Shown piece after piece: positions 8,839-28,070 of a stretch of DNA of 64,000 nucleotides (position 1 is its first letter; every line of letters begins with the position of its first letter). The notes under the pieces were generated by a model. It was not told the origin of the DNA, ran no database searches, and was given only the letters and a program-made list of their open reading frames with translations. The stretch is taken from the NCBI GenBank assembly GCA_025355955.1, contig JANXYP010000193.1, positions 3,597 through 67,596 on the forward strand, given 5' to 3'. The position numbers were made by a program, and so were the translations under genes. The stretch is from Chloroflexota bacterium (lineage in GTDB: Bacteria > Chloroflexota > Chloroflexia > QHBQ01).

Positions 8839-10050
8839 ATGATGAACAAAATGATGCGCTTCAGTGCGGGTGTGTGGCTGGCGGTGATGCTGATGTTGAG
8901 CGTGACCCTCACCTTCGCCTCATCCGGCTCCCGGGTGCAGGACGATGCCAACGTGTTTAGCAGCGCACAGCGCAGCAGCCTGCTGCAGTTCGCCAATGCG
9001 ATGAAGGTGCCAGCATTGGTGACAACCACCGCCTCGTTCAATGGCAGCAAGAGCGCCTTCGTCAACCAGGCGAGCAGCAACGTGCCGTCCAATGGTGTCC
9101 TAATCGCAATCAGCACCGCTACGAGCAACCATTACTACGTGGTATTGGTGGGCAACAACAGCGGGCTGGGCAACAGCGATCAGCAGAACGCCTACAGCGC
9201 GGGGCTTGATTACCTGAAGGCCAGCGGCGGGCCGCAGTATGCGCCAGCGACGTTCGCCAGCCTCTACTCGCTGGATGCGGCGCTGGGGGCGCAGGCTTCT
9301 GATGCGCTGGGTATCAGCGGTGCGCCGGGCAGCGGTTTCACCACGAGCGGTGGTAACGGCAACACCAACCTACCAGTTACCAACCTCAACCCGCCCAACT
9401 CCGGCAATATCGGTTCGGGTGGCGGCGTGAATACCAGCGGAGGCTACAGCAGTAGCGGAGGAGGCTTCGGTTTCGGTGGCCTCGGCATCGGCACCTGCCT
9501 GTGCGGGTTGGTGCTGCTGTTTATCGTCTTCAGCATCTTCAACAGCGTGCGCGGCTATAGCAATCGGGTGGCGGGTCGCTTTGGACGCTACGGTGGTTAT
9601 CAGGGTTACGGCGGAGGCTGGGGCGGTGGCGGCGGCATTCTGCCAATTCCTATCCCCATTCCCTTTGGTGGTGGGGGCAATAGCGGCAACCAGGGTGGCA
9701 ACCAGCAAGGCGGTGGCGGCCAGGACTTCGGCGGCGGTGGTGGCGGAGGGCATAACAATGCGCCCAACACTGGTGGCGGCACCTTCGAGTCGCCCTTCGG
9801 CGGAGGCGGTCACAGCGAGGGCAGCAGCATCCTCGGTGAGATCTTCGGTGGCGGTGGCGGCGGTGGCGGTGGCGGCGGCGGTGGCAGCAGAAACACTGGC
9901 GGCGGTGGCTTCGAGTCCGGCTTCGGCGGTGGCGGCGGTGGCGGCGGCGGTGGCAGCAGAAACACTGGCGGCGGTGGCTTCGAGTCCGGCTTCGGCGGTG
10001 GTGGAGGTGGCGGCGGTGGCGGTGGCGGTGGTGGCGGCCAGGATTTCTAG
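8839..10050 (+). CDS. TPM domain protein (one TPM domain, one TM, very Gly-rich tail)
   Basis: ATG at 8839 follows GAAAGGAAG. Signal peptide MMNKMMRFSAGVWLAVMLML…, TPM-like RVQDDANVFSSAQRSSL…NGVLIAIS…, TM, NTGGG(T/G)FES motif x3, and the protein ends GQDF. Confidence 0.8.
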   Translation: MMNKMMRFSAGVWLAVMLMLSVTLTFASSGSRVQDDANVFSSAQRSSLLQFANAMKVPALVTTTASFNGSKSAFVNQASSNVPSNGVLIAISTATSNHYYVVLVGNNSGLGNSDQQNAYSAGLDYLKASGGPQYAPATFASLYSLDAALGAQASDALGISGAPGSGFTTSGGNGNTNLPVTNLNPPNSGNIGSGGGVNTSGGYSSSGGGFGFGGLGIGTCLCGLVLLFIVFSIFNSVRGYSNRVAGRFGRYGGYQGYGGGWGGGGGILPIPIPIPFGGGGNSGNQGGNQQGGGGQDFGGGGGGGHNNAPNTGGGTFESPFGGGGHSEGSSILGEIFGGGGGGGGGGGGGSRNTGGGGFESGFGGGGGGGGGGSRNTGGGGFESGFGGGGGGGGGGGGGGGQDF

Positions 10051-10408
10051 CCGCGATTCCCTGCCAACGCTAAAGTGATACCAATTAGCGGTGGTGCCGC
10101 TTTAGATTGAGCCATGACGAACAACGGTTCGCCCCTACTGAACGCCTGCTCCGCAAGAACGTGATCCGCACCCGTGGTGAATGACCACCTACCTCGCCGA
10201 GTAATCGAGGGCTGGGAGCGTAGCTCCGAGCGTTCAAGCGTATCAATGCTTATCGCAAGCGTCAATCCGTCAATGCTGGTAGCTGTTGAAGGGTTGGTGA
10301 TGGCGGGAGATAAGCGCGACGCAGAGGATCGGCATGGATCTACGCCCCAACCTCCGATACTCTTCTTGACCGCTGCTTGCGATAAGCATTGATGCGCTTC
10401 ACCATTCT

Positions 10409-10576
10409 CCCTCACCCTGCCTCTCCCAGCAGGGGAGGGGTAAAACGGATTGCCCTCACCCTGCCTCTCCCAGCGGGAGAGGGATAAAACGGATTGCCCT
10501 CACCCTGCCTCTCCCAACGGTAAAACGAATTGCCCTCACCCTGTCTCTCCCAGCGGGAGAGCGGTAAAACGGATTC
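10409..10576. repeat. Tandem array (4 units, ~44 bp) of the H1-type hairpin repeat
   Basis: Units CCCTCACCCTGCCTCTCCCAGCGGGAGAGGGATAAAACGGATTG at 10409, 10453, 10497 (36 bp, 3' arm deleted) and 10533. The array ends 9 nt before the ATG at 10585. Confidence 0.9.
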
Positions 10577-10584
10577 CCTCATCC

Positions 10585-13377
10585 ATGGCCGCTACATCAA
10601 CAACCGCTGCAGCATCCATCCGTCACCCCCGCCTGCGCCGCTGGCTGCGCCGGGGGTTTCGTGCTATGCTCATCCTGATCATCGTGCTGCTGCTGGCCGC
10701 GCTGGGGCTGTACTGGTATATCGCCAAGGATCTGCCCTCACCGGAGGGGTTGAACCGCCCGCCCGCGCAATCTACGCTCATCTACGACCGTGATGGGCGG
10801 CTACTGTACGAGATCAGCGACCCGAACGAGGGTCATCGCACCGTCATCGCGCTGGCGGAGATACCCACCATGCTGCGCGATGCCACCATCGCCACCGAGG
10901 ATGCCGACTTCTACACCAACCCCGGCTTCGACGCGGGCGCGTTGCTGCGGGCGCTTTGGCAGAATCTCAGCAGCGGCACAGTCGTCTCCGGCGCTAGCAC
11001 CATCACTCAGCAGCTGGTGAGGGCAGCGCTGTTCAGCGACACGGAGCAAAACTCTGTCAGCTACTGGCGCAAGGCCCGCGAGGTGGTGCTGGCCTTCCAG
11101 GTGAACCAGCGCTACGGCAAGGACGACATCCTTGCCATGTACCTGAACCAGATTTATTACGGCAACGCCTCATATGGAGTGGAGGCAGCGGCGCAGTCGT
11201 ACTTCGGCGTAGCTGCCCGAGACCTGGATCTGGCGCAGTGCGCGATGCTGGCGGGGCTGCCCGCTGCGCCTAATGGATACAACCCGCTCACTAACCCGAC
11301 CGAGGCTGATGCCCGTCGCCGCCAGGTACTCGACCTGATGGTGAAGCGCGGCTATATCAGCCAGGCGCAAGCCGACGCTGCTGCCGCCGAGCAGTTGCAC
11401 TATGCGGGGCAACGCTACGCCATCAAAGCGCCCCACTTCGTGATGTACGTGCGCGACTTGCTGGAAGCCAAGTATGGCCGCGAGCTGGTGGAGCGCGGCG
11501 GGCTGCGCGTCTACACCACCCTCAGCCTGCCCTTGCAGGACATCGCCCAGCGGGTTGCCACCAACCATCTTGCCACCTTGCAGCAGGATCACGTCAGCAA
11601 TGCGGCGCTCGTCGCGCTCGACCCCGCCACCAACCAGATTCTGGCGATGCTGGGAAGCGCGGACTATTTCAATCCCAACATTGACGGCGAGGTGAACGTG
11701 GCGCTAGCGCCACGCCAGCCCGGCAGCAGCATGAAGCCGATTACCTACGCCGCCGCACTGATCAGTGGGCAGAGCGGCGCGACCCTGCTGCCCGACATCC
11801 CCACCACCTATCCCGACCGCGACGGCTCGCTGTATATGCCGATCAACTATGACCAGCTCTACCATGGGCCGGTGACGCTGCGGATGGCCCTGGCGAACTC
11901 CTACAACGTGCCGTCGGTGGCGCTGGAGAGCCGCGTGGGGGTGGACAGCGTGCTGAAGCTGGCCCGCAACCTGGGCCTCACCACCCTCGATGCTGACCCC
12001 AGCAAATATGGCCTCAGCCTGACCCTGGGCGGTGGCGATGTGCGCTTGCTGGACCTGACTGCCGCATACGCCACCTTCCGCAACGCTGGCAACTACGCTC
12101 CGCCCAGCGCCATCCTGCGGGTGGAGGACAGCCGCGGCAAGGTGCTGGAGCAGTACCAACCGCCAACGCAAACCCCAATGCTGGGCAACAATGGCGCACA
12201 GGCCGCTTACATCCTCACCAATATCCTGTCCGACAACTTCGCCCGCATCCCCAGCTTTGGCCGCTACAGCCCGCTCTACCTGCACGACCGTCCCGCCGCC
12301 GCCAAGACCGGCACCACCACAAACTTCCGTGACAACTGGACGATGGGTTATACCATGGATTACGTGGTCGGCGTGTGGGTGGGCAACAACGACAACAGCC
12401 GCATGGAAGGCAGCACTGGCGTGACCGGCGCAGCTCCCATCTGGCACGATTTTATGGAGCAGGCCAGCGCCGGGCTGCCCACCCGCGACTTCCCCCGACC
12501 CACTGGCTTGCGCGACGTGGAGATATGTTCCCTGTCCGGCCTGCTGCCCACCCCTTATTGCGTGGATACCCGCACCGAGACGTTCATCGCTGGCACCGAG
12601 CCGACTCAGCTTGACAACTTCTACCAGCCGTTCAAGCTGGATCGCACTAACGGGCTGCTTGCCACCCGCCATACACCCACAGCGGATGTGATCACCCAGG
12701 TGTATGCCATCCTGCCGCCGGAGTACAACGACTGGGTGAAGCAGCAAGGCTGGCCGCAACCGCCCACCGCTTATTCGCCGAATGGCAACGTTGGGCAGAA
12801 CGCGACGCTGATCACTGCGCCAAAGGCAGGTCAAAATGTCAGCGGCGTGGTGGAGGTGCGTGGGCAGCTACCGGCGGGCGCGGGCAATGTCGCCCTCTTC
12901 GCGGGACGCAGCGGCGACAGTGGCGGCAGCCGCCTACCCCTCGCCAGCGATGGCGACCAGGCCAGCGGTATCCTCGCGCACCTTGACAGCAGCGGGATGA
13001 ACGGGGCAATCACCCTGCACCTCAGCTACACGTTGGGCGGCCAGCAACTTGACGAGCAAATCCCGCTGGTGGCCGACAACATCCCGCCGCGTGCCGGTGT
13101 GCTATACCCCACCAACGGCGCAACCTTCAGCATCAAGCAGAACGCGGGCCTGCCCGAACCGTTCACCGCCGATGCCGCCGACAACTTCGCAGTGGGCAAC
13201 GTGCAATACTTCGTGGACGGCCAGCCCTACGACAGCATCAGCGGCGACGGCCCCTACACCGTGCCGCTACACCTCGATCGCATCGGGGTCGGCCCCCACA
13301 GCCTCTACGTAATCGTCACCGACAAGGCGGGCAACCAGACGCGCAGCGGGGTGGTGAATATCAATGTTGGGCCGTGA
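10585..13377 (+). CDS. Class A penicillin-binding protein (PBP1A family transglycosylase/transpeptidase) with a C-terminal Ig-like extension
   Basis: GT51 motifs (ATIATEDADFY, GASTITQQL, RKAREV), transpeptidase SxxK-type (GSSMKP), SYN, and KTGTT. The ORF track start at 10450 (TTG) would translate the hairpin repeat array, so ATG at 10585 before the TM segment is preferred. Confidence 0.9.
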   Translation: MAATSTTAAASIRHPRLRRWLRRGFRAMLILIIVLLLAALGLYWYIAKDLPSPEGLNRPPAQSTLIYDRDGRLLYEISDPNEGHRTVIALAEIPTMLRDATIATEDADFYTNPGFDAGALLRALWQNLSSGTVVSGASTITQQLVRAALFSDTEQNSVSYWRKAREVVLAFQVNQRYGKDDILAMYLNQIYYGNASYGVEAAAQSYFGVAARDLDLAQCAMLAGLPAAPNGYNPLTNPTEADARRRQVLDLMVKRGYISQAQADAAAAEQLHYAGQRYAIKAPHFVMYVRDLLEAKYGRELVERGGLRVYTTLSLPLQDIAQRVATNHLATLQQDHVSNAALVALDPATNQILAMLGSADYFNPNIDGEVNVALAPRQPGSSMKPITYAAALISGQSGATLLPDIPTTYPDRDGSLYMPINYDQLYHGPVTLRMALANSYNVPSVALESRVGVDSVLKLARNLGLTTLDADPSKYGLSLTLGGGDVRLLDLTAAYATFRNAGNYAPPSAILRVEDSRGKVLEQYQPPTQTPMLGNNGAQAAYILTNILSDNFARIPSFGRYSPLYLHDRPAAAKTGTTTNFRDNWTMGYTMDYVVGVWVGNNDNSRMEGSTGVTGAAPIWHDFMEQASAGLPTRDFPRPTGLRDVEICSLSGLLPTPYCVDTRTETFIAGTEPTQLDNFYQPFKLDRTNGLLATRHTPTADVITQVYAILPPEYNDWVKQQGWPQPPTAYSPNGNVGQNATLITAPKAGQNVSGVVEVRGQLPAGAGNVALFAGRSGDSGGSRLPLASDGDQASGILAHLDSSGMNGAITLHLSYTLGGQQLDEQIPLVADNIPPRAGVLYPTNGATFSIKQNAGLPEPFTADAADNFAVGNVQYFVDGQPYDSISGDGPYTVPLHLDRIGVGPHSLYVIVTDKAGNQTRSGVVNINVGP

Positions 13378-17183: not shown

Positions 17184-17737
17184 TGCACACCCCCTCGCTA
17201 ACCAGCCGCGTAACGCACCGCTGAATTGCAATGCTGCCACAAGTATACCACAGGGATGCAACTGCTGGGCAACGGGCTGCGGTACATCACGTTCTTGCCA
17301 CGCAAGTTTGATAGGGGCGAGCTACGGTTCGCCCTGGTCGGTGATGCTAGAACGTGACGCGCATCCGTGTCGCCGGGTGCAGTTCATCAAATTGCAACTT
17401 ATATGTGAGGTGTGCGGATTGCAACTACTCTGGTGGATATCGCAAGAGCTTGAACTGCATCCTACGTCGCCGCGCTATTGGCTCATTTTGGCTATCCAGC
17501 AGCAAATGTAAAAGGGATTACACCGAACCTGTAAAGATTTTGACAACATCCTAGCTTAATTAAAGTTATAATTAGCCCAGGTTAATTCTTGCAGACACCT
17601 AAGCGCCTGCCCACCAATCCCCAGTTTCGCCTGCAGCGATGGGGCCAGGCAGTAGCGCGGAGGTAACGCACTTTGGCCCCCAGAAACCTCCATATTATCC
17701 ACCCTCAGCAATAAAAGGAAAGAAAGGAACAGATCTC

Positions 17738-19384
17738 ATGCAGCGTATCATCAAACTCAGTCGTTGGCTGGCCCTGTTCGGCCTGGTCGCGCTCGTGGTT
17801 GGCTTCAACGGTCACGCCTCCGCCGATGCCAACAGCCGTTACTTCCCGGAGACCGGCCATACCGTAACCCAGCCGTTCCTCACCTACTGGAACACGCATG
17901 GCAGCCTCGCGCAGCAGGGCTACCCCATCACCGACGATTACATGGAGGTCAACGACGCAGACGGCCATACCTACCGCACCCAGTATTTCCAGCGCAGCCG
18001 CTTCGAGTACCACCCCGAACAGGCCAACCCTGCCTACCAGGTACTACTCGGCCTGCTCGGCACCGAGGCATTTACTGCCAAATACCCCGGCGGGCTACCG
18101 GCTGGCACTCAAACCCAGGTAGTGCCGGGCGATGGCAGCCAGACCTTCCCTGAAACCGGCCACACCGTCACTGGCCTGTTCCTTGATTACTGGAACAATC
18201 ATGGCGGCCTCGCGCAGCAAGGCTACCCTATCACTGAAGCCTACTTCGAGACCAACGATGCTGACGGCAACCAGTACGTCACCCAGTATTTCCAGCGGGC
18301 GCGTTTCGAGTATCACCCGGAGCAGAGCGACCCCCAGTATAAGGTGTTGCTCGGCCTGGTGGGTACCGAGATCTACTTGCTCAAGCATCACGGTGGCGGC
18401 GGCCTTACGCCAACTGCGACCCCGGCCCCTGGCAATCCCACGCCAACCGCAACCCCGATCTCCATCCCCGCGCCAGTACAGGCTTCGCCCGCCGATGGCA
18501 CCGTGCTGACCAATTTCCCGCGCAGCTTCACTGTCGCCTGGAACCCGATCAGCGGCGTGCCTGGGGCGATTAGCTACAACGTGCAGATCGAAATCAACAC
18601 TGGTACCTGGGTGAACTATCACACCCAGACCGGCATTGCAGGCACCAGCTACTACTCCCCTGACTTCACGGGCGACAATCAGGGGCGCTGGCGGGTGTGG
18701 GCCACCACCAGCCAGGGTGATGGGCCAAAGAGCGGTTGGTGGCACTTCAGCTTCAACACCGCACCTGTCCATACCGCCGCCCAGTATAGCGGCACCTGGC
18801 TTAACGACGATAGCAACACTGGCAACGTAACCAAGCTGACCATCAGTAACGCTGGCAACAGCATCACCGTACATGGCTACGGCTCGTGCCACCCCACCGA
18901 CTGCGACTGGGGAACGCGCACCGGCACCTACAGCGGCGATCCGTTTGTTATCCTGTTCGATTTCGGCGGCGGCCTCACTCACCAACTGACCATGAGCCTG
19001 GATAGCTCTAACCAGCACCTTGCGGTCATTGACCTCGGCTCGTCGAGCGGCACCCTCAATCTGACCTTCCACCGCGAAACTGCCGCTGACTTCGACGGCA
19101 CCTGGCTCAACGACGACACGCACACTGGTGGCATCACCAAGCTGATCCTCAGCCATTCGGGGAACGACATCACCGTACACGGTTACGGCGCTTGTTCGCC
19201 CACCGACTGTGACTGGGGAACGCGCACCGGCACCTTCAGCAGCGAACCGTTCGCCATCCTGTTCGACTTTGGTGGCGGCCTCACCCACACACCTAGCATC
19301 ACCGTCGGGCTGGCAGGTCGTCAACTGGTAGTGGTGGACACTGGCTCATCCAGCGGTGTGCATACCTACTACTTCCACAAGTAG
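17738..19384 (+). CDS. Secreted multi-repeat protein (2x ~65-aa 'YW..HGG…GYPIT' repeats, FN3-like module, 2x ~100-aa Cys-pair modules)
   Basis: ATG at 17738 follows AAAGGAAAGAAAGGAA. Signal peptide …GHASA. Internal duplications are obvious in the translation. The N-terminal repeats are paralogous to 27282-28070. Confidence 0.8.
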   Translation: MQRIIKLSRWLALFGLVALVVGFNGHASADANSRYFPETGHTVTQPFLTYWNTHGSLAQQGYPITDDYMEVNDADGHTYRTQYFQRSRFEYHPEQANPAYQVLLGLLGTEAFTAKYPGGLPAGTQTQVVPGDGSQTFPETGHTVTGLFLDYWNNHGGLAQQGYPITEAYFETNDADGNQYVTQYFQRARFEYHPEQSDPQYKVLLGLVGTEIYLLKHHGGGGLTPTATPAPGNPTPTATPISIPAPVQASPADGTVLTNFPRSFTVAWNPISGVPGAISYNVQIEINTGTWVNYHTQTGIAGTSYYSPDFTGDNQGRWRVWATTSQGDGPKSGWWHFSFNTAPVHTAAQYSGTWLNDDSNTGNVTKLTISNAGNSITVHGYGSCHPTDCDWGTRTGTYSGDPFVILFDFGGGLTHQLTMSLDSSNQHLAVIDLGSSSGTLNLTFHRETAADFDGTWLNDDTHTGGITKLILSHSGNDITVHGYGACSPTDCDWGTRTGTFSSEPFAILFDFGGGLTHTPSITVGLAGRQLVVVDTGSSSGVHTYYFHK

Positions 19385-19622: not shown

Positions 19623-20801
19623 CTATTTGGCAAAGAAAAATGTCAACGCATCAGCCAGGTCATCGCGCCACAAGGCCCAGCTATGCCCATAGTGGCGTTC
19701 GCTGTATTGCAGTGGGTAGCGGTACTGCACAAGCACGTCGCGCAGTTCGCGCACCGGCGTAAGCATATTCTTGCAGTTGCCCTGCGCGTCGAGGCCGTAG
19801 CACGTCTCATACGTGCCGATCGTCAAATGCAGCATCAGCGGCAACTGCGGGGTGTCTGCGTATGTCGCACGCGTATCCCAGTCGCCATCCATTGCCTGCG
19901 CCACGCTCGATTGCGCCCCAACCTTCCCGAACACATCGGGCCGCTTTGCCGCGATGTATAGCGAGATTAGCCCGCCCATGCTTGGCCCCATAATTGCGCG
20001 CTGCGTCGGGTGGTCGAAGACAGTGAAGTTGGCTTGCACATCGGCCACCAATTCGGCGCTAAAGAAGCGCAGGTAATCGTCATTGCAATCATACTCCGCC
20101 CACCTATCCAGCGGAGGCACGAACACTGCCACCAGCGGCGAAATTGTACGGTCAGCAATCAGGTTGTCGAGTATAGTGGAGGCCGCACCGAAGTTGAGGT
20201 AGTCGCCACCGTCGTGGAAGTAAATGGCTGGGTATGAGCCATCTACGGAGTCATCGTAGCCAGGTGGAATATAGACGGTGTAAGGTCGCCGCTGATGCAG
20301 CGCCTTACTGCCCAACTCGCGCTCTACCAACCTGCCTTGCGCCTGATCTGACCGCCGCTCGGTAATCGCGGGGCGGCAATACTCCGGCATCTCCAAAGCG
20401 CTGCGGTCGCCCAGCCCCGACATCCCCAGGCGAGGGTTGAGCGGGTCGCGGCTCATCGATACATCCGCTTTCTGCATCGCAGCGGCATCGCTGAGGTCGG
20501 CATCCTGTGGCACACTGGCAAGCAGGTAATCGAGCCGCGCATCCACCGCAAACTGTTGCTGGTAGTGCAGCAGGCCGCCGCCAATTGGCTGCATCAGCCC
20601 TCGCCGCGCATCCCAGCCGTTCCACTCGCCGCCCACGCCTACGCTGCTCCCCGGCTCTGCCGCCGCGATGAAGTGCGCGGTGTTGCCCTCGACGATGGGC
20701 GTGCCACCATGCACCGCGACAAAGCGGGCTATGTAATCGGGGTCAGGCTCGTCGGTTTGCAATGCGGCAACAAATTGGGTGAAGCTGGTGGGGATGTCCA
20801 T
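19623..20801 (-). CDS. Alpha/beta hydrolase, putative esterase family (enterochelin-esterase-like) with an N-terminal beta domain
   Basis: YTVYIPPGYD…YPAIYFHDGGDY… and the nucleophile elbow GPSMGG. ATG at 20801 is preceded by GAGGAGA. The longer ORF would overlap the PIN gene. Confidence 0.8.
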   Translation of the reverse strand: MDIPTSFTQFVAALQTDEPDPDYIARFVAVHGGTPIVEGNTAHFIAAAEPGSSVGVGGEWNGWDARRGLMQPIGGGLLHYQQQFAVDARLDYLLASVPQDADLSDAAAMQKADVSMSRDPLNPRLGMSGLGDRSALEMPEYCRPAITERRSDQAQGRLVERELGSKALHQRRPYTVYIPPGYDDSVDGSYPAIYFHDGGDYLNFGAASTILDNLIADRTISPLVAVFVPPLDRWAEYDCNDDYLRFFSAELVADVQANFTVFDHPTQRAIMGPSMGGLISLYIAAKRPDVFGKVGAQSSVAQAMDGDWDTRATYADTPQLPLMLHLTIGTYETCYGLDAQGNCKNMLTPVRELRDVLVQYRYPLQYSERHYGHSWALWRDDLADALTFFFAK

Positions 20802-20823
20802 ATCTCTCCTCACTCTTGACAAT

Positions 20824-21258
20824 TTATGGGCATGGGTAGGGACTAATATTCGCCAGTCCAAGGATGATGCCAAAATCCTTATCGCAACTGCAAAGAACAG
20901 CATGATGACGGAGGGCGCACTCAGCAATTAGCGCGTCAGCGAAGCCCAATTTGCTCTTGCCATATAGGCTAGTAACCCTGGCTAGCGCATTTGTGTAATC
21001 CTGCGGCATGGGATAATCTATCTGATAGTTACTGAGCAGGTATGCAACGATGGGGAGGTCGCGCTTACGCACAGGTGGGTTGCCGCCCTGGGGTTTGGAA
21101 TACAGCAATTCGTTGATTACGATGCTGGAGATTATGAGGGGCTGATGGGTTAGCGAGTTGAACCAGTTTACGGCGGGCTGGTATCGAAAGAAGAATACGT
21201 GAAGCACAATGTTTGTATCCAGCACGATTGCGCTGGATACTTGCCCTTGTACAATCAC
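20824..21258 (-). CDS. vapC: PIN-domain ribonuclease toxin (VapC-like)
   Basis: Conserved acidic positions in PIN order (VLDTN, INEL, ADALIA, CDKDF). The GTG start overlaps the upstream stop by 4 nt (GTGA). Confidence 0.8.
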   Translation of the reverse strand: MIVQGQVSSAIVLDTNIVLHVFFFRYQPAVNWFNSLTHQPLIISSIVINELLYSKPQGGNPPVRKRDLPIVAYLLSNYQIDYPMPQDYTNALARVTSLYGKSKLGFADALIAECALRHHAVLCSCDKDFGIILGLANISPYPCP

Positions 21259-21680
21259 TCCTCGCTGCCTCCCCAGGTGGATTCACGCAAGGTGTGGGGT
21301 AGCGTTGCGGGATCGCCGAGATCATCGCGGTCGTCGCCCAGGCTGAAGAAGCCAATGTCTCTTAGCGCCTGGGCGGTAACAGGCTTCAGTTGATTGACAG
21401 AGACAGGCCCACGTTGCACAACGTTGATCTGCTGCAACCTCACTTGCCCTATTTTTTGACGGGTACCATTGGCCGGGGTTGCCTCCGCCTCGCCAAAGGC
21501 TTCTACCCTGTCGCCAAGCGCATCTTTGACTGCGGGCTTCAGCAATTCAGGATATGTGCAAGTCATGGTGTTGGCACCATCAGTGATGCGGCAAGTGTTG
21601 TCGCGGAAGTCGGCGAGTTCGAGTGTGCCGCACACAGTTATCTTCACTAGTTCAGCCTTATTCAGATTAGATGTAGCCAT
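21255..21680 (-). CDS. Putative cognate antitoxin of unusual size and type (141 aa, no recognisable VapB-type DNA-binding fold)
   Basis: It is translationally coupled to the PIN gene, has an acidic C-terminal tail (FFSLGDDRDDLGDPATL), and shows no family recognisable by eye. Confidence 0.6.
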   Translation of the reverse strand: MATSNLNKAELVKITVCGTLELADFRDNTCRITDGANTMTCTYPELLKPAVKDALGDRVEAFGEAEATPANGTRQKIGQVRLQQINVVQRGPVSVNQLKPVTAQALRDIGFFSLGDDRDDLGDPATLPHTLRESTWGGSEE

Positions 21681-22013: not shown

Positions 22014-22089
<76 letters not shown>

Positions 22090-22286: not shown

Positions 22287-23864
22287 TCAGGCCATCCGAT
22301 TGCCACAGTTGGTGCAGAAGCGCTTGTTGGCGGCGTTGAGCGTGGCGCAGCGGGGGCAGCGCACCTGGGAGGCAATGGCAGACACTGGCCCCTGGGTGGT
22401 CATCGGTTGGGCGGCCCCGGCGAGGCGATTGCCACAGTTGGTGCAGAACTTGCGGTCGGCGCGATTGGGCGTGCCACAGTGGGGGCAGGCTTGCTGGCCG
22501 AACGGCGGTTGCGCGGGGGGCAGGGGTTGAGAGAGAGGCTGGCGCAGGTTCGCGCCACAGTTGGCGCATAGCTCACGGTCTACTCCATTCAGCATCTGGC
22601 AACGCCAGCAGGCAATCTGCGACGGCGCGGGCGGCGGGAAGGGCGGGTTGTAGTTTGGCGGCGAGGTGTTTGGTGGCAGGTTGAACACCGGCGGGCTCGA
22701 TTGCACTGGCTGGCTGGGCGGGATGTAGACCGGCGGGTTTGATTGCACCGGCTGGCTCGACAATATTGGCGGCGGATTCGATTGCACTGGCGGCTCGGAC
22801 ATAGATAGTGGGCTGGATTGCTCCGACACGATGGTTGCGGTGGAAGGCTGCTGGGTAGGCGGCAGCTGGTGGAGCGGGGTGGCGGGGTGGGGCAGACCAC
22901 TGGCTACGCCGCCTTGCGTCATACTCTCGCGCATCGCCTTCAGGTCATCCATATAAGTGCTGGGGCTGAACTGGTGTTGACACTGATAGCTGAGGTAGGA
23001 TAGCTTGGTGTCGTTGCCCTCGTTCAATACAAAGGTTTGTTCGGTGTTACATTTAGGGCAATTATAGTAGATGAGCAGCGGGTGCAGGTTCAGCGCGGGG
23101 CTGTACTCCTGGTCGGCGGCGTTTATATACAACTGCTCAGGGATGGCCTCGTCGTTAGCCATGATGTAAGGCTCACGTACCTGCGAGGGGTAGTTGCCGG
23201 TTAGATCGGTAACATAGTGTTCGTACTGGCGGGTGCGCCCGCCTGCCCGCTGCACCGAGTTGACCCAAACCAGGCGGTAGTGAGAGAGGAAGGCCATATG
23301 GTCGAGCATTTCTTCCATTGCTGGGCTGAGTACATTTACCACCTTCTCGCGCTCATAGCCACTCAGTTTTGCACCGTGCGAGGTGCCATTACGGTATTGC
23401 AGCAGCAGTTCGAGGAACTCGCGAGTGGTAACCACCTGCACCTGCTTGCTGTCGCCCCGATTCATCTGCGAGAAAACTATGCTCTTTAGCTCATTGTAAC
23501 CCTTCAGCATCGCCGATCCCTCGCGGTACTTCTCGTTGAGGGCGGTGGATAGTTCACTCATCACCAGTGGCTTTTTCTGCTTGCCGTAATAGTTGATGAT
23601 ATCGCGCATCCAGCCCACCCAGTTGCCGAGGCTAGGCCGCTCCAGCGCTTGCAGGCTATCGGTAATAGTCTGATCGCCACCGCCCTCGCTAGCGTACTGA
23701 CTCATCACGATTACGGCCAGATACTTGACCAGTACCTCGTACAGATCCATCATATAATCGTGAATCTGCGTTTCGTCGCGGGTCTGCTTGTAGGCGCGGT
23801 AATAGGAGCGGGCAATGGGGTATGGATACTCGCCCAGGATCTTTGCATCAATTTTCGGCGGCAT
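22287..23864 (-). CDS. Uncharacterised protein: all-alpha N-terminal domain with an RNxxxH (HEPN-like) motif, Zn knuckle, P/Q-rich linker, three C-terminal zinc ribbons
   Basis: R158-N-G-T-S-H163 (nt 23376-23393), CPKC…CQH, SQPVQSNPP-type repeats, and 3x CxxC-x10-CxxC (CWRC…CANC, CPHC…CTNC, CPRC…CTNC). Confidence 0.8.
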   Translation of the reverse strand: MPPKIDAKILGEYPYPIARSYYRAYKQTRDETQIHDYMMDLYEVLVKYLAVIVMSQYASEGGGDQTITDSLQALERPSLGNWVGWMRDIINYYGKQKKPLVMSELSTALNEKYREGSAMLKGYNELKSIVFSQMNRGDSKQVQVVTTREFLELLLQYRNGTSHGAKLSGYEREKVVNVLSPAMEEMLDHMAFLSHYRLVWVNSVQRAGGRTRQYEHYVTDLTGNYPSQVREPYIMANDEAIPEQLYINAADQEYSPALNLHPLLIYYNCPKCNTEQTFVLNEGNDTKLSYLSYQCQHQFSPSTYMDDLKAMRESMTQGGVASGLPHPATPLHQLPPTQQPSTATIVSEQSSPLSMSEPPVQSNPPPILSSQPVQSNPPVYIPPSQPVQSSPPVFNLPPNTSPPNYNPPFPPPAPSQIACWRCQMLNGVDRELCANCGANLRQPLSQPLPPAQPPFGQQACPHCGTPNRADRKFCTNCGNRLAGAAQPMTTQGPVSAIASQVRCPRCATLNAANKRFCTNCGNRMA

Positions 23865-23879
23865 GGTTCTTTCCTTTGG

Positions 23880-23983
23880 CTATCGGCCACTGGGCGAACA
23901 ACGGTTCGCCCCTACATTTCGATTGTGGTAACTATCGGCCACTGGGCGAACAACGGTTCGCCCCTACATTTCGATGGTGGTGG
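23880..23983. repeat. Two tandem 52-bp REP-containing units
   Basis: CTATCGGCCACTGGGCGAACAACGGTTCGCCCCTACATTTCGAT(T)GGTGGT repeated at 23880 and 23932. They fill the spacer between the two genes of the STAND/HEPN-like pair. Confidence 0.85.
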
Positions 23984-24001
23984 TGCCTGCGCCACCCGCC
24001 C

Positions 24002-27000
24002 CTAGCGGGTGATCTCCTGCTTCACCAGTTGGGCGAGCGCAACATTGTCCAACTGTTTAGCCCGCTCGACGGTCCAGTTGGCCCACCTGTTAGCGGTGTC
24101 GGGTTCGGTCATATCGCGGGCGAGGCGGGTTAGCTCCAGGCCAGTGATGGCGATCTCGTAGGCATCGCCGCCCGGCCAGAGCGTCTTCAGGTTGTCAATA
24201 AGCATCTGGTTGGCGGTGGCCCAGTTTTGCTGCAAGCGGGCGAGCTGGCCGCCGATAATGACGATGGCCGCGCTGGTGTCGGGGATGTCAGCCAGCTTAT
24301 CCTGCGCTTCGGCGAGCGCCGCCTTGCCCTGCCCTATATCGCCAGCATCAGCGTGCAATCGCGCCGCGGTGAGGGCGGCGAAGCCCTGGCTGTGGCGGGC
24401 GGCGGCCTTGTCGCTCAGGCGGGTGGCAGCCTCACGGCTGGCGGCGAGGCTGGCCCAGGCGGCCTCGTGATCGCCTTTCAGCCGCTGCAGGTCGGCAATC
24501 TGGTTGGTGAGCTTGCTGACCAGGCTGGCGGCGGGCTGCTCGTCGGCGTTGACCAGGTCGAGGTCGCGCTGCAGGTATTCAAGCGCCTCATCCAGCTTCC
24601 ACATCCGTGCATACAACCCGCCCAGGCCGCCATAGGCCGCGCCCAGCCCGTAGCTGTCGCCCAGCCCCTCCAGTTCGGGAATGAGTTTCTGGAAGGTTTC
24701 CGCCGAGGCCACCGCCTGTCCCAGATTCTGGTAGGCGTAGGCAAGGGTGTTGCCGATGCTGGCAGCGAGGTAGCGGTCCTTGAGTTGGGTTCGCGCCTCC
24801 TGCTCCGCCTCGGTGAGATACTTGATCGCCTCGGCTTTGCACTGGAAGCTGAGGCACTGGCCCAGGTAGTGCTTGCCCTGCACCGCTGAGGCGCGGTCGC
24901 CCTGCCGCTCGGAGATGTCAAGTGCGGTACGCAGGTAGCGTTCAGCCTCGTCCAACTTACGCATCCGATTATACACCAGCCCCAGTTCGAGGTAAACGCG
25001 GTCGAGATCTTCAGCGGCTACCAATTGCGCGGTATCCAGGCCAGCGGCAACCGTCTCCTCGCTGATGCCGTGCGCGGCGTAGAGCGAGAGGCAGCCCTGC
25101 AACTCGGTAATTGCCGCCTCGAAGTTGCGCTGCTGACTGAGCATACTGCCGCGATAAACCCCCACTCGCACCCGACCGTCGAGGTCGCCCGCCGCGCTGT
25201 ATAGCTGTTCACACTCGTCGAAGCATGAGCTTGCTTTGCCGTAGTTGCCCAGCTTGAAGTAGAGCCAACCGAGGTGGCCGCGCAATTCGGCGCGTTGCAA
25301 TTCGGCCTTCTGCGCGGCGCTTTGCTCCGCGTACGCTGGCTGCTCGTCGCTAGCGGCCTGCTCCTCCGCCGTGCCGACATCGCTGAACGGTAGGGCGGAT
25401 TCGAGGTCGGCAATCGCTTCTTTGGTGTTGCCGAGGTACTCATAGGCGAGTGAGCGGGTGGTCAATACCTCGCGGCGGATGGCAAGGTTCTCGTCGGTGG
25501 CGGACAGATGGTCGAGGCAGGCTAGCGCTTTGGTATAGGAATCCACCGTTTCGGCATAGGCGGTTTCATTGAACAGCTTGGCAGCGGCGGTGAGGTAATA
25601 GCGCGAGGCAGGCTCGTACTGTGCGGCGGCGAAGAAGTGGCGGGCCAGGTCGGCGGCCACTGCGTCGACGTTGCCTTGCTGGTTCGCCAGTTGCTCCCAT
25701 GCGATTGCCACCTCCAGATGGTCGTTGCGAATCAGGCTGGAGGGCAGCTTGCGTAGCAGCGAGTTGTGAATATGGCTGGAGGTAAAGGTCAGCACCTGCT
25801 CGTCGTTGGCCTCAGCGGTGATAATCTGGTGACGTTCGGCTAGCTCGGCAAGCTGGCGCAGCACCCCCCGCCGACTGGCGCTCAAGCCCTGGTACTCGCG
25901 CAGGCGGTCGCTGGTGAGCAAATCGAGGGGGAAGCGTCGCCCCACCACCGCCGCGCACTCCAGCAAGCCGTACAGATCGGGGCTGAGGGTGTCGAGGTAC
26001 TTGGCGGTTAGCGCGCCGACCAGGGTTGCGCCGCGGGTGGTATCATCGGCGCTCTCGTCGCCGGTGGTAAACACCGCTGCCTCGCCACCTTGCACCAGAT
26101 ACTCGATGCTCTCGTGGATGATGCCAGGGACACCGGCGCTGAAGTTGGCGATCTGCTCCCGCGCCTGCTTGATATCCGCCTCGGCGACATGGTTGCGCGG
26201 GTCGTGGGCCAGCTCGTCAATCAGCGCCAGGGTGTCGTGGTGGGCGAGCGGTTCCAGCTTGACCATCTCGCCCCGCGTGCGGCTGATCAGGGTACGTAGC
26301 GCCGATGGCACATCGTTGAGGCTACCATCCCAGCCCAGCATTACCAGAATGGGAAAGGTGGGGGTAATCAGCGCATCAAGCAGCTTGAAGGTGGTTTCGC
26401 GGGCATACTGCACCTCGTCAATAATCAGCACGATCGGCTTCTTCTTGCCCTGCTCATACCAGCTACGCAACGTCTGGTGGATGGCAAGGAAGTTCTTGTT
26501 CACCGTAGTGCCGCTGCTGCCCTCCTCCCGCGCCCTCCGCTGCTCCTTGTTGAAGTTGTTGACGCGGCGCACCATGTCGCTCACCTCAAAGGCGATGCCG
26601 ATCGGGTTGGGGATAAGCGAGTTGAATATGTTAATTACGTCGGCAATATGCTTGCCCGCCTCAAGGCCGAACTCTTTGGTTGCCCCACCCACTGTGCTGC
26701 TACGCACGATCGCGCCACCCGCGCCGAAGGCAAGACCGAGGGCGCTGAACACCGGCTGATAGGGGTTGCTGTCCGCCGACTCGTCGGCCCGCCCGCTAAA
26801 GACCAGGAAACCATGCTTCTGCGCCTCGGCCTGGCAGTAGGCGAGCAGGTTGCTCTTGCCCATGCCCTCTTGACCGCCGAACAGCAGACAGTCGTTGCGC
26901 CCACCCTTTAGCCGCAGCAGGGCATTGTTGATCAAATCAAGCTCGTGGTCGCGGCCAACCAACTTGAGTAGGTGCGGCGCGGCTTTTTTGTTCTTATCAG

Positions 27001-27025
27001 TCTGCTTGCTAAGGGTGGGTGTCAT
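24002..27025 (-). CDS. STAND/AAA_16-type P-loop NTPase with a long C-terminal TPR array
   Basis: LVGRDHEL…GGQEGMGKS (Walker A), …SNPYQPV…, VLIIDE (Walker B), then >500 aa of TPR-like repeats (…AYEYLGNTKEAIADLESAL…, …LGLVYNRMRKLDEAERYLRTALDI…). No output domain is visible. Confidence 0.85.
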   Translation of the reverse strand: MTPTLSKQTDKNKKAAPHLLKLVGRDHELDLINNALLRLKGGRNDCLLFGGQEGMGKSNLLAYCQAEAQKHGFLVFSGRADESADSNPYQPVFSALGLAFGAGGAIVRSSTVGGATKEFGLEAGKHIADVINIFNSLIPNPIGIAFEVSDMVRRVNNFNKEQRRAREEGSSGTTVNKNFLAIHQTLRSWYEQGKKKPIVLIIDEVQYARETTFKLLDALITPTFPILVMLGWDGSLNDVPSALRTLISRTRGEMVKLEPLAHHDTLALIDELAHDPRNHVAEADIKQAREQIANFSAGVPGIIHESIEYLVQGGEAAVFTTGDESADDTTRGATLVGALTAKYLDTLSPDLYGLLECAAVVGRRFPLDLLTSDRLREYQGLSASRRGVLRQLAELAERHQIITAEANDEQVLTFTSSHIHNSLLRKLPSSLIRNDHLEVAIAWEQLANQQGNVDAVAADLARHFFAAAQYEPASRYYLTAAAKLFNETAYAETVDSYTKALACLDHLSATDENLAIRREVLTTRSLAYEYLGNTKEAIADLESALPFSDVGTAEEQAASDEQPAYAEQSAAQKAELQRAELRGHLGWLYFKLGNYGKASSCFDECEQLYSAAGDLDGRVRVGVYRGSMLSQQRNFEAAITELQGCLSLYAAHGISEETVAAGLDTAQLVAAEDLDRVYLELGLVYNRMRKLDEAERYLRTALDISERQGDRASAVQGKHYLGQCLSFQCKAEAIKYLTEAEQEARTQLKDRYLAASIGNTLAYAYQNLGQAVASAETFQKLIPELEGLGDSYGLGAAYGGLGGLYARMWKLDEALEYLQRDLDLVNADEQPAASLVSKLTNQIADLQRLKGDHEAAWASLAASREAATRLSDKAAARHSQGFAALTAARLHADAGDIGQGKAALAEAQDKLADIPDTSAAIVIIGGQLARLQQNWATANQMLIDNLKTLWPGGDAYEIAITGLELTRLARDMTEPDTANRWANWTVERAKQLDNVALAQLVKQEITR

Positions 27026-27281: not shown

Positions 27282-28070
27282 ATGATGAGCAAAACAATCA
27301 GGTTCCCGGTTCGCGTCGGGCTGGCCGCGCTGCTGCTGCTACTGGCGCTGGGCGCAATGCTGCTGCCCAGGGACAGCGCCGCGCAGTCCGGCGCGACAAT
27401 GAACAGCCATGCGGTGGCCGCCGACTTCCTCGCCTACTGGCAGGCACATGGCGGGCTGGCGATCAACGGCTATCCGATTACCGATGAGGCGATCGAAGTG
27501 AGCCAGACCGATGGCAAGAGCTACGCAACCCAGTGGTTCGAGCGGGCGCGCTATGAGCGCCACCCGGAGAACCCGACCGCTAGCCGCGTGCTGCTGGGGC
27601 TGCTGGGTGTGGAGTATAGCAAAGGCAAGAGCTTTGCGCCCGCCACCAGCCAGGTGAGCAACGCCACCACCACTTACTTCGCGGCCACCAACCACAGCCT
27701 GAGCGACAGCGGCGCGCCCTTCCTCAGCTACTGGAAGGTGGGCGGCGGGCTGGCCCAGTTCGGCTACCCGCTCTCGGAGCAGTTGCCGGAGGTCAGCACC
27801 GACGGCAAGACCTACATGGTGCAATACTTCGAGCGGCAACGCTTCGAGTATCACCCGGAGCAGAGCAACCCACAGTACCGCGTGCTACTCGGCCTGCTGG
27901 GGGTGCAGCTTTATCAGCAGGGCAACGCCACGTCAACGCCCGGCCAGACCAGCGGCCTGCCGCCAACCGATACCCCCGCATCCGCGCCCGCGCCGACCAA
28001 TACGCCCGCGCCTGCGCCGACCGCACCGCGCAGCAACGGGCCAACCCCAACCTATGGCGGAGGATTATAG
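27282..28070 (+). CDS. Secreted protein with two 'YW..HGG…GYPIT' repeats and a P/T-rich tail (paralogue of the N-terminus of 17738-19384)
   Basis: AAGGAGAGA RBS, signal peptide …LLPRDSAAQ, and repeats FLAYWQAHGGLAINGYPITDE…WFERARYERHPE…LLGLLG and FLSYWKVGGGLAQFGYPLSEQ…YFERQRFEYHPE…LLGLLG. Confidence 0.8.
   Translation: MMSKTIRFPVRVGLAALLLLLALGAMLLPRDSAAQSGATMNSHAVAADFLAYWQAHGGLAINGYPITDEAIEVSQTDGKSYATQWFERARYERHPENPTASRVLLGLLGVEYSKGKSFAPATSQVSNATTTYFAATNHSLSDSGAPFLSYWKVGGGLAQFGYPLSEQLPEVSTDGKTYMVQYFERQRFEYHPEQSNPQYRVLLGLLGVQLYQQGNATSTPGQTSGLPPTDTPASAPAPTNTPAPAPTAPRSNGPTPTYGGGL

Follow-up and report, generated by a model that had tools for sequence, protein, structure and literature searches.

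Positions 22287–27025 of a 64,000-nucleotide stretch of DNA from a Chloroflexota bacterium (assembly GCA_025355955.1, contig JANXYP010000193.1, positions 3,597 to 67,596; the whole stretch is referred to here as the window) hold two co-directional genes that form a conserved pair and probably one functional unit. Gene 1 encodes a predicted STAND-like nucleoside triphosphatase (NTPase) followed by an array of TPR repeats, and gene 2 encodes a protein with a HEPN-like N-terminal module, a flexible linker and three C-terminal zinc ribbons. An earlier interpretation made from the DNA letters, referred to here as the sequence-only reading, had proposed a sensor NTPase together with a separate HEPN-like effector; both open reading frames, the neighbouring tRNA-Lys and a PIN gene pair lie where it had placed them. 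The pair is discussed below as a candidate split NLR/STAND-type conflict module.

Organization and linkage of the two genes

The two genes and their parts are arranged as follows.

24002–27025, minus strand: gene 1, 1007 residues (open reading frame list)
26363–26965, minus strand: AAA_16 P-loop NTPase domain of gene 1, residues 21–221 (Pfam PF13191, E=1.6e-16, 61.7 bits against a cutoff of 32.6)
26852–26878, minus strand: Walker A, GGQEGMGKS, residues 50–58 (pattern search)
26414–26431, minus strand: Walker B, VLIIDE, residues 199–204 (pattern search)
26123–26140, minus strand: S-A-G-V-P-G, residues 296–301, putative STAND-type GxP motif of the helical arm (family alignment)
24386–25582, minus strand: TPR array, approximately residues 482–880 (Pfam TPR matches over residues 494–880)
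23865–24001, no strand: spacer between gene 1 and gene 2, 137 bp, filled by the palindrome GGGCGAACAACGGTTCGCCC in tandem duplicate (period 52); the palindrome resembles repetitive extragenic palindromic (REP) elements
22287–23864, minus strand: gene 2, 525 residues, comprising the module (1–320), a P/S/Q-rich linker and three zinc ribbons (open reading frame list)
23280–23864, minus strand: putative HEPN-like all-helical part of the module, residues 1–195 (AlphaFold2 model; the sub-threshold HEPN matches of relatives align here)
23724–23738, minus strand: E43...K47 in the long helix 31–59, candidate for the helix-2 acidic residue
23598–23639, minus strand: RPSLGNWVGWMRDI block, residues 76–89, signature of the module family
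23376–23393, minus strand: R-N-G-T-S-H, residues 158–163, candidate Rx4-6H catalytic motif
22905–23279, minus strand: beta-rich domain and terminal helix, residues 196–320, with CPKC (269–272) and CQH (295–297)
22611–22904, minus strand: P/S/Q-rich linker, residues 321–418, with two SQPVQS[NS]PP repeats
22557–22610, minus strand: zinc ribbon 1, CWRC-x10-CANC, residues 419–436 (pattern search)
22434–22487, minus strand: zinc ribbon 2, CPHC-x10-CTNC, residues 460–477 (Pfam DZR/Zn_Ribbon_1)
22305–22358, minus strand: zinc ribbon 3, CPRC-x10-CTNC, residues 503–520 (Pfam DZR)

The NTPase region of gene 1 matches only the Pfam families AAA_16, ATPase_2 and AAA_22, and the repeats beyond it match TPR_12, TPR_8, TPR_2, TPR_10 and TPR_1; the Walker motifs and the repeats were re-found as the sequence-only reading had described them. 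In an alignment of five gene 1 homologues, with identities down to 30%, the three glycines of Walker A are invariant, the Walker B pattern hhhh[DE][DE] is present in all five, and S296, G298 and P300 are invariant about 95 residues past Walker B. A GxP motif is a hallmark of the STAND helical arm, and the S-x-G-x-P formed by these last three residues is presumably that motif. On these sequence features gene 1 probably encodes a STAND-like AAA_16 NTPase, which we leave unassigned to a specific STAND clade. Walker A is canonical in the window and deviates in two homologues, reading GSGQS with K57 replaced by Q in locus L018 (4892–8023) and GSGKG with S58 replaced by G in locus L001 (6971–9952), and some members of the family may be degenerate or inactive STAND-like NTPases. 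Pfam found no HTH, LuxR, SARP, BTAD, NB-ARC, NACHT or enzymatic domain in gene 1, in agreement with the earlier impression that it carries no enzymatic or DNA-binding output domain; no MalT-type model matched, and NCBIfam returned nothing meaningful.

Only the C-terminal zinc ribbons of gene 2 are recognized by Pfam (DZR, E=2.5e-17), and residues 1–320 match no Pfam, NCBIfam or PADLOC model. Joining the two parts is the linker, which contains 29 prolines in 92 residues, has a predicted local distance difference test score (pLDDT) below 50 in the full-length model and differs in length and sequence among homologues; it is probably disordered. The first zinc ribbon is missing in a 49% identical relative (P0007), and a protein identical to gene 2 is present in NCBI data (P0001). 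Pattern searches recovered each of the gene 2 features that had been picked out by eye, namely the RNGTSH motif, CPKC...CQH, the SQPVQSNPP-like repeats and the three CxxC-x10-CxxC ribbons.

The adjacency of the two genes is conserved. Directly upstream of every gene 2 relative that is at least 49% identical, and on the same strand, is an orthologue of gene 1 (loci L001/L002, L003, L006, L007, L008, L009, L010 and L022). These loci represent four tiers of divergence, comprising the window itself and relatives at 87–88%, 72% and 49–53% identity, and the 49% tier (L001), which lies between NYN_YacP and a transglycosylase, has flanks wholly unlike those of the window. A fifth tier is represented by L018. 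There, a gene 1 homologue 30% identical and collinear over 943 residues (E=2e-125) overlaps the beginning of a module gene with NB-ARC, HTH_77 and TPR domains of its own. Tested in reverse, gene 1 orthologues with readable downstream DNA are all followed by a module gene, and a metagenome scan with the gene 1 alignment yielded four loci. AAA_16 relatives only 23% identical to gene 1 have no module gene behind them; apart from the L018 pairing, module genes less than about 42% identical to gene 2 never adjoin a gene 1 homologue in the loci compared. The closest loci to the pair are metagenome-assembled genomes (MAGs) of Chloroflexia, and a gene 1 fragment 82% identical is annotated to a Candidatus Chloroheliales MAG. 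The synteny expected by the sequence-only reading therefore extends through all relatives of at least 49% identity, across different flanks, and recurs in the lineage at 30%.

This linkage bears on the possibility that gene 1 is a regulator of the MalT/LAL/AfsR type and gene 2 an unrelated zinc-ribbon neighbour. Such regulators commonly combine AAA_16 with TPRs, and one source has named a gene 2 homologue after the RNA polymerase subunit RPABC4/Spt4, from its zinc ribbon. Gene 1, however, matches none of the HTH, LuxR, SARP and BTAD domains, the adjacency is kept over five divergence tiers with different flanks, and proteins exist in which the module is fused to STAND and TPR parts. We regard this explanation as very improbable.

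The module family and its probable relation to HEPN domains

Close relatives of residues 1–320 of gene 2 fall into 9 clusters among 5.8 billion proteins, and all of them retain Y157-R158-N159-x3-H163-G164 and the RPSLGxWxGWxRDI block. The wider family is large: an exhaustive profile search recovered the module, as a discrete unit, from 2,236 representatives of clusters formed at 50% identity, with E≤1e-10 for 816 of them. Residue conservation was counted over 132 diverse full-length copies, taken from clusters at ≤50% identity, in 125 of which the module is N-terminal. Best conserved is P262 (131 copies), followed by P14 (127), R158 (126), E43 (125), N159, G80 and W82 (123 each), H163 and K47 (121 each) and P77 (117). 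The spacing between the arginine and the histidine is 4, 5 or 6 residues among family members, which is the Rx4-6H range, and N159 supplies the polar residue (N, D or H) that follows the arginine in HEPN motifs. The putative catalytic residues are conserved and active-site-like, and the R158/H163 motif that the sequence-only reading had singled out is conserved beyond chance. The Cys/His cluster is retained less often (C269 in 85 and C295 in 81 of the 132 copies), and because of this partial conservation a zinc site in the beta-rich domain appears to be optional.

An AlphaFold2 model of residues 1–320, built on a 27-sequence alignment, has a mean pLDDT of 92.6 and a predicted template-modelling (TM) score of 0.92. 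It comprises nine helices (residues 3–195), a beta-rich domain (196–291) and a terminal helix (305–316), the latter two at a pLDDT of about 90. In this model R158 and N159 close helix 147–162, and H163 starts the loop leading to helix 169–195; E43 is located in the earlier long helix 31–59, with four extra helices between that helix and the motif. In HEPN domains, Rx4-6H is positioned where a helix ends and the following loop begins, helix 2 carries a conserved acidic residue, and extra helices in between are likewise described (PMC3710099). Residues 1–195 model confidently as an all-helical domain, as had been anticipated, and the R-N...H motif is predicted to be placed in the helices as it is in HEPN.

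When 27 diverse module copies were scanned one by one, the only Pfam families to match more than one of them were HEPN_MAE_28990 (PF18737), with 6/27 members matched and a best E of 3.2e-5 (24.6 bits, where the gathering score is 26.8), and HEPN_RiboL-PSP (PF18735), also with 6/27 members and a best E of 2.9e-4, below the gathering score. In three members examined in detail, the matches all cover the region of the RN...H motif (module residues 43–195) and fall in the C-terminal part of the HEPN profiles. With phmmer and profiles, the PDB sequences yielded chance matches only, among them apolipoprotein E and Doc. In our judgement, which draws on the motif, the modelled topology and the recurrent sub-threshold profile matches, the module is likely to be a divergent member of the HEPN superfamily that always carries a beta-rich extension.

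Alternative partners and genomic surroundings

Elsewhere in the family the module is joined to other partners. Combined in a single chain with NB-ARC/AAA_16, HTH_77 and TPR domains in P0047, P0054, P0079, P0060 and P0044, it occupies the effector position of the classical effector–STAND–sensor layout; two sampled proteins of this composition stand alone. Aligned by hhalign with the NB-ARC+TPR part of these fused relatives, gene 1 matches in the TPRs only (98% probability), which does not support deriving gene 1 from such a protein as its split-off NB-ARC+TPR half. The module also occurs with zinc ribbons alone (L011), with WD40 propellers (L012 and P0010), with TPRs (L016), with FHA and an ABC transporter (L015 and P0020), with Ser/Thr kinases (6/47) and, in P0048, between a TIR domain and a propeller. 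Next to the gene for the P0054 fusion are a transposase of the rve family and a 1505-residue protein that reaches the contig end (L021:4688–5590).

A second kind of separately encoded partner is present in a sister clade, where a protein of about 525 residues with no Pfam match and with predicted C-terminal transmembrane helices adjoins module genes in five loci (L005:451–2028, L012:12509–14152, L013:8394–9977, L015:8283–9980 and L020:924–2495), often overlapping the module gene by 4 bp. All four copies scanned (L005, L012, L013 and L020) match PADLOC models of CRISPR-associated CorA-like proteins, with a best E of 2e-51. No cas10, cas genes or CRISPR context was noticed in these loci, in which cas genes were not specifically searched for. 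Partners of the gene 1 type and of the CorA type are mutually exclusive in the loci sampled. In an uncultured Chloroflexia MAG, tandem paralogous module+WD40 genes (L012:7535–9667 and 9935–12505) are followed by the CorA-like gene. Taken as context, the TIR, NB-ARC and CorA partners, the tandem duplication and the domain shuffling suggest a role of the module family in conflict systems.

Outside the pair, the following features were located in the window.

22014–22089, plus strand: tRNA-Lys(CTT)
20824–21258, minus strand: PIN/VapC-like gene, beyond tRNA-Lys from gene 2 (Pfam PIN, E=8.8e-11)
20824–21680, minus strand: PIN pair, in which a 141-residue open reading frame precedes the PIN gene with a 4-bp overlap
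10115, 17315, 19489, 19556, 23892, 23944 and 27068: copies of the palindrome GGGCGAACAACGGTTCGCCC
28343, 30001, 30070, 32550, 45688 and 61607: further copies of GGGCGAACAACGGTTCGCCC

Preceding the PIN gene, the 141-residue open reading frame matches no Pfam, NCBIfam or PADLOC model and is large for a VapB antitoxin. The PIN pair is kept in the 87–88% identical relatives (L003 and L006); this retention is shared ancestry and no independent association with the gene pair. An esterase open reading frame (19623–20927, minus strand) with a listed TTG start overlaps the PIN gene at 20824–21258, on the same strand, by about 100 bp, and its real start is probably further downstream. Related proteins built of repeated GYPITD...YFQRARFEYHPE units, with a faint LGFP match only, are encoded at 17639–19384 and 27282–28070, both on the plus strand; they are probably secreted, and one of the two genes is directly upstream of gene 1. 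In the 88% relative, a family-B DNA polymerase gene and a gene for an N6_N4_Mtase+Mrr_cat fusion are positioned upstream of the pair (L003:1562–5760), and both are absent from the equivalent position in the window.

The two REP-like copies that the sequence-only reading had seen in the spacer are present there, 52 bp apart. The window contains 13 copies of the palindrome where 0.07 would be expected; they are sometimes paired and are in or near intergenic regions where checked. Since the spacer between the two genes is shorter in relatives (48 bp in L001 and 92 bp in L003) or replaced by an overlap (L018), the window's two copies give the impression of having been inserted between the genes of an operon. 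The stems of the spacer palindromes lack a trailing T-run, and a terminator scan was negative there.

Proposed mechanism and comparison with known systems

On balance we favour, with some reserve, the explanation that the pair is a split NLR/STAND-type conflict module in which a STAND sensor controls a HEPN-type RNase. Gene 1, with its AAA_16 domain, GxP helical arm and TPRs, would serve as the nucleotide-dependent sensor and switch. Binding of a ligand by the TPR array would lead to nucleotide-dependent oligomerization of the gene 1 protein. Gene 2 proteins would then be recruited to it or clustered, perhaps by way of their zinc-ribbon tails at the end of the flexible linker. The HEPN modules brought together in this way would form active dimers, each module being a predicted metal-independent RNase that uses R158, N159 and H163, with E43 as a candidate residue nearby. 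By cleaving cellular or invader RNA, these dimers would stop growth or abort an infection. In this scheme the RNase activity, the signalling direction, the surface of interaction and the biological trigger are all predicted, and we infer that gene 2 is the effector and the pair a defence system. The central proposal of the sequence-only reading, a sensor NTPase with a separate HEPN-like protein, is supported by what was found: a helical N-terminal model, conserved R158 and H163, and preserved synteny.

Several observations weigh against a conflict module of this kind, beginning with its surroundings. The neighbours in the window are mostly of housekeeping type, comprising the esterase, the secreted repeat proteins and DinB-like and MurT/GatD-like genes (the esterase and one repeat protein were family-scanned, and the DinB-like and MurT/GatD-like genes were named by eye from their translations). 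There is no compositional anomaly, the GC content of the locus being 0.55–0.65, as in its surroundings. The tRNA-Lys gene, which the sequence-only reading had taken as a possible insertion point, is not supported as an island marker: with no compositional break and no second copy of the tRNA 3′ end (single copy only, allowing up to 3 mismatches), nothing marks a tRNA-bounded island, and we reject this idea; nor did Pfam find an integrase among six neighbouring proteins scanned. A tblastn search with the module found no relatives on plasmids or phages at that sensitivity. Gene 2 has no match in PADLOC-DB 2.0, and the PADLOC matches of gene 1 are marginal (generic TPR, 2.4e-4; mad8, 1.1e-3; SngB, 8e-3). 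No adaptor domain is common to the two genes (best E=0.25 when gene 1 was compared with gene 2 by BLASTP). The L018 homologue lacks the Walker A lysine, and NTP hydrolysis is perhaps not shared by all members of the family.

These surroundings, the ordinary metabolic or cell-wall genes that flank the pair in L001 as well, and the lack of significant PADLOC matches and of plasmid or phage copies would suit a housekeeping or stress-regulatory operon not directed against invaders, in which a TPR-ATPase scaffold controls a HEPN-type RNase for the processing or degradation of specific cellular RNAs, such as in starving or developing filamentous Chloroflexia. The Ser/Thr kinases, FHA domains and ABC transporters to which the module is fused are typical signalling parts, and HEPN domains also function in RNA processing (PMC3710099). 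Standing against such an operon are the patchy distribution of the pair, with close relatives in so few clusters, and a set of traits characteristic of conflict systems, namely extreme domain shuffling, tandem paralogues (L012) and TIR, NB-ARC and CorA partners. We consider the regulatory operon unlikely, if the strongest of the competing explanations.

The remaining counter-evidence concerns the module itself. All of the Pfam HEPN matches are sub-threshold, and the window's own gene 2 has none; a Foldseek search of the module model against PDB and BFVD returned no significant neighbour (best E=0.06, TM score below 0.2), and the full-length gene 2 model gave no usable match. The HEPN assignment proposed earlier stands on recurrent sub-threshold profile matches together with motif and topology, and Foldseek gave no HEPN neighbour. 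In the TIR+module+propeller protein and in the CorA-paired clade, moreover, the other component might be the effector, with the module acting upstream.

Such results would also fit a module that is no nuclease but a HEPN-like or new helical+beta fold serving as a ligand or RNA sensor or as an oligomerization switch. The output would then be provided elsewhere, by CorA, TIR or a kinase in relatives, and here by nucleic-acid binding through the zinc ribbons or by an activity of gene 1. In P0048 the module takes up, between TIR and propeller, the usual place of the NTPase switch, and in another clade its partner is a probable membrane effector of the CorA-like kind. Against this, R-N-x3-5-H-G and E43/K47 are the best conserved residues (92–95%), a pattern resembling an active site and not a binding surface; the position of the motif in the helices fits HEPN, and catalytically dead HEPNs typically lose the motif (PMC3710099). 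A non-nuclease module is in our view slightly less probable again than the regulatory operon, and we retain the split conflict module as the preferred explanation.

Bacterial STAND or NLR-like immunity is usually described in terms of single polypeptides with a fused effector. The occurrence of the same effector-type module in split and fused formats, and in formats free of an NTPase, provides natural material for studying how a STAND sensor activates an effector in trans. New here are a large module family without a curated model or a structural neighbour, conserved split STAND-like sensor and HEPN-like genes with no recognizable adaptor, the triple zinc-ribbon tail, and the alternation with a CorA-like partner in sister clades. 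Lacking a Pfam, NCBIfam or PADLOC model, this family of more than 2,000 clusters is currently missed by annotation pipelines; if the RNase prediction is true, the HEPN superfamily gains a new branch and the poorly studied Chloroflexia a candidate defence system. A bolder proposal, which we put forward tentatively and would sooner doubt than assert, is that the 320-residue module marks a large family, so far unnamed, of modular proteins for immunity or conflict in Chloroflexota and further lineages of the Terrabacteria type. The module would act as a nuclease 'warhead', its fold absent from the PDB, plugged variously into a separate STAND NTPase as in the window, a fused NB-ARC/TPR, bare WD40 or TPR sensors or a CRISPR-type CorA channel. 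The window pair would then be the first described case of a novel defence system of split NLR-like design.

Neither gene matches a characterized regulator or, as the sequence-only reading had suspected, a named defence system, and the pair can be compared with several of them. MalT/LAL/AfsR regulators share with gene 1 the AAA_16 NTPase, the GxP helical arm and the TPR sensor; gene 1 differs from them in having no DNA-binding domain (Pfam and NCBIfam) and in its conserved HEPN-like partner. Adjacent NTPase and effector genes are also a feature of the EAD-coupled NTP-dependent conflict systems of multicellular bacteria (Kaur et al. 2020, PMC7159879), for which an enrichment in Chloroflexi, cyanobacteria and actinobacteria is described. 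The pair described here differs from these in having no vWA/MoxR components and no adaptor (EAD) domain shared by the two genes, the BLASTP result given above ruling out the latter. In type III CRISPR signalling, CorA acts as a membrane effector (PMC10600005); its counterpart here is the CorA-like neighbour of the sister clade only, not of this window, and it serves as background to the module family alone.

Antiviral STAND proteins with fused effectors are well established (PMC13581612). The logic of effector, NTPase and repeat sensor is shared with Avs and bNACHT proteins (PMC13581612; bioRxiv 10.1101/2022.07.19.500537), and the fused relatives of the module have the same layout. In contrast to those systems, neither an Avs nor an NLR model of PADLOC matches, the effector is separately encoded, and no close relationship is detectable between the AAA_16 lineage of gene 1 and the NB-ARC of the fused relatives. 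Among HEPN families, PF18737 and PF18735 are likened to the module as the sole recurrent profile matches, over the helix–motif–helix region, whereas the scores stay below gathering and each family is matched by about 22% of members; MAE_18760 proteins are fused to a novel beta-rich domain (PMC3710099).

The closest precedent by domain architecture was catalogued in 2013, when proteins with an N-terminal HEPN domain, a STAND NTPase and TPRs, as well as HEPN–zinc-ribbon fusions, were listed in the Swt1-family row (Anantharaman et al., PMC3710099), with Npun_F6454, Npun_R5629 and Plim_2023 as examples. Common to these proteins and the present family are an N-terminal HEPN-type domain joined either to a STAND ATPase and TPRs or to a zinc ribbon, an active-type Rx4-6H motif and a predicted role in conflict. 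The module falls below the Pfam thresholds for Swt1 and other HEPN families and carries an obligatory beta-rich extension, and the NTPase–TPR and HEPN-like/zinc-ribbon parts are here encoded by separate, conserved neighbouring genes.

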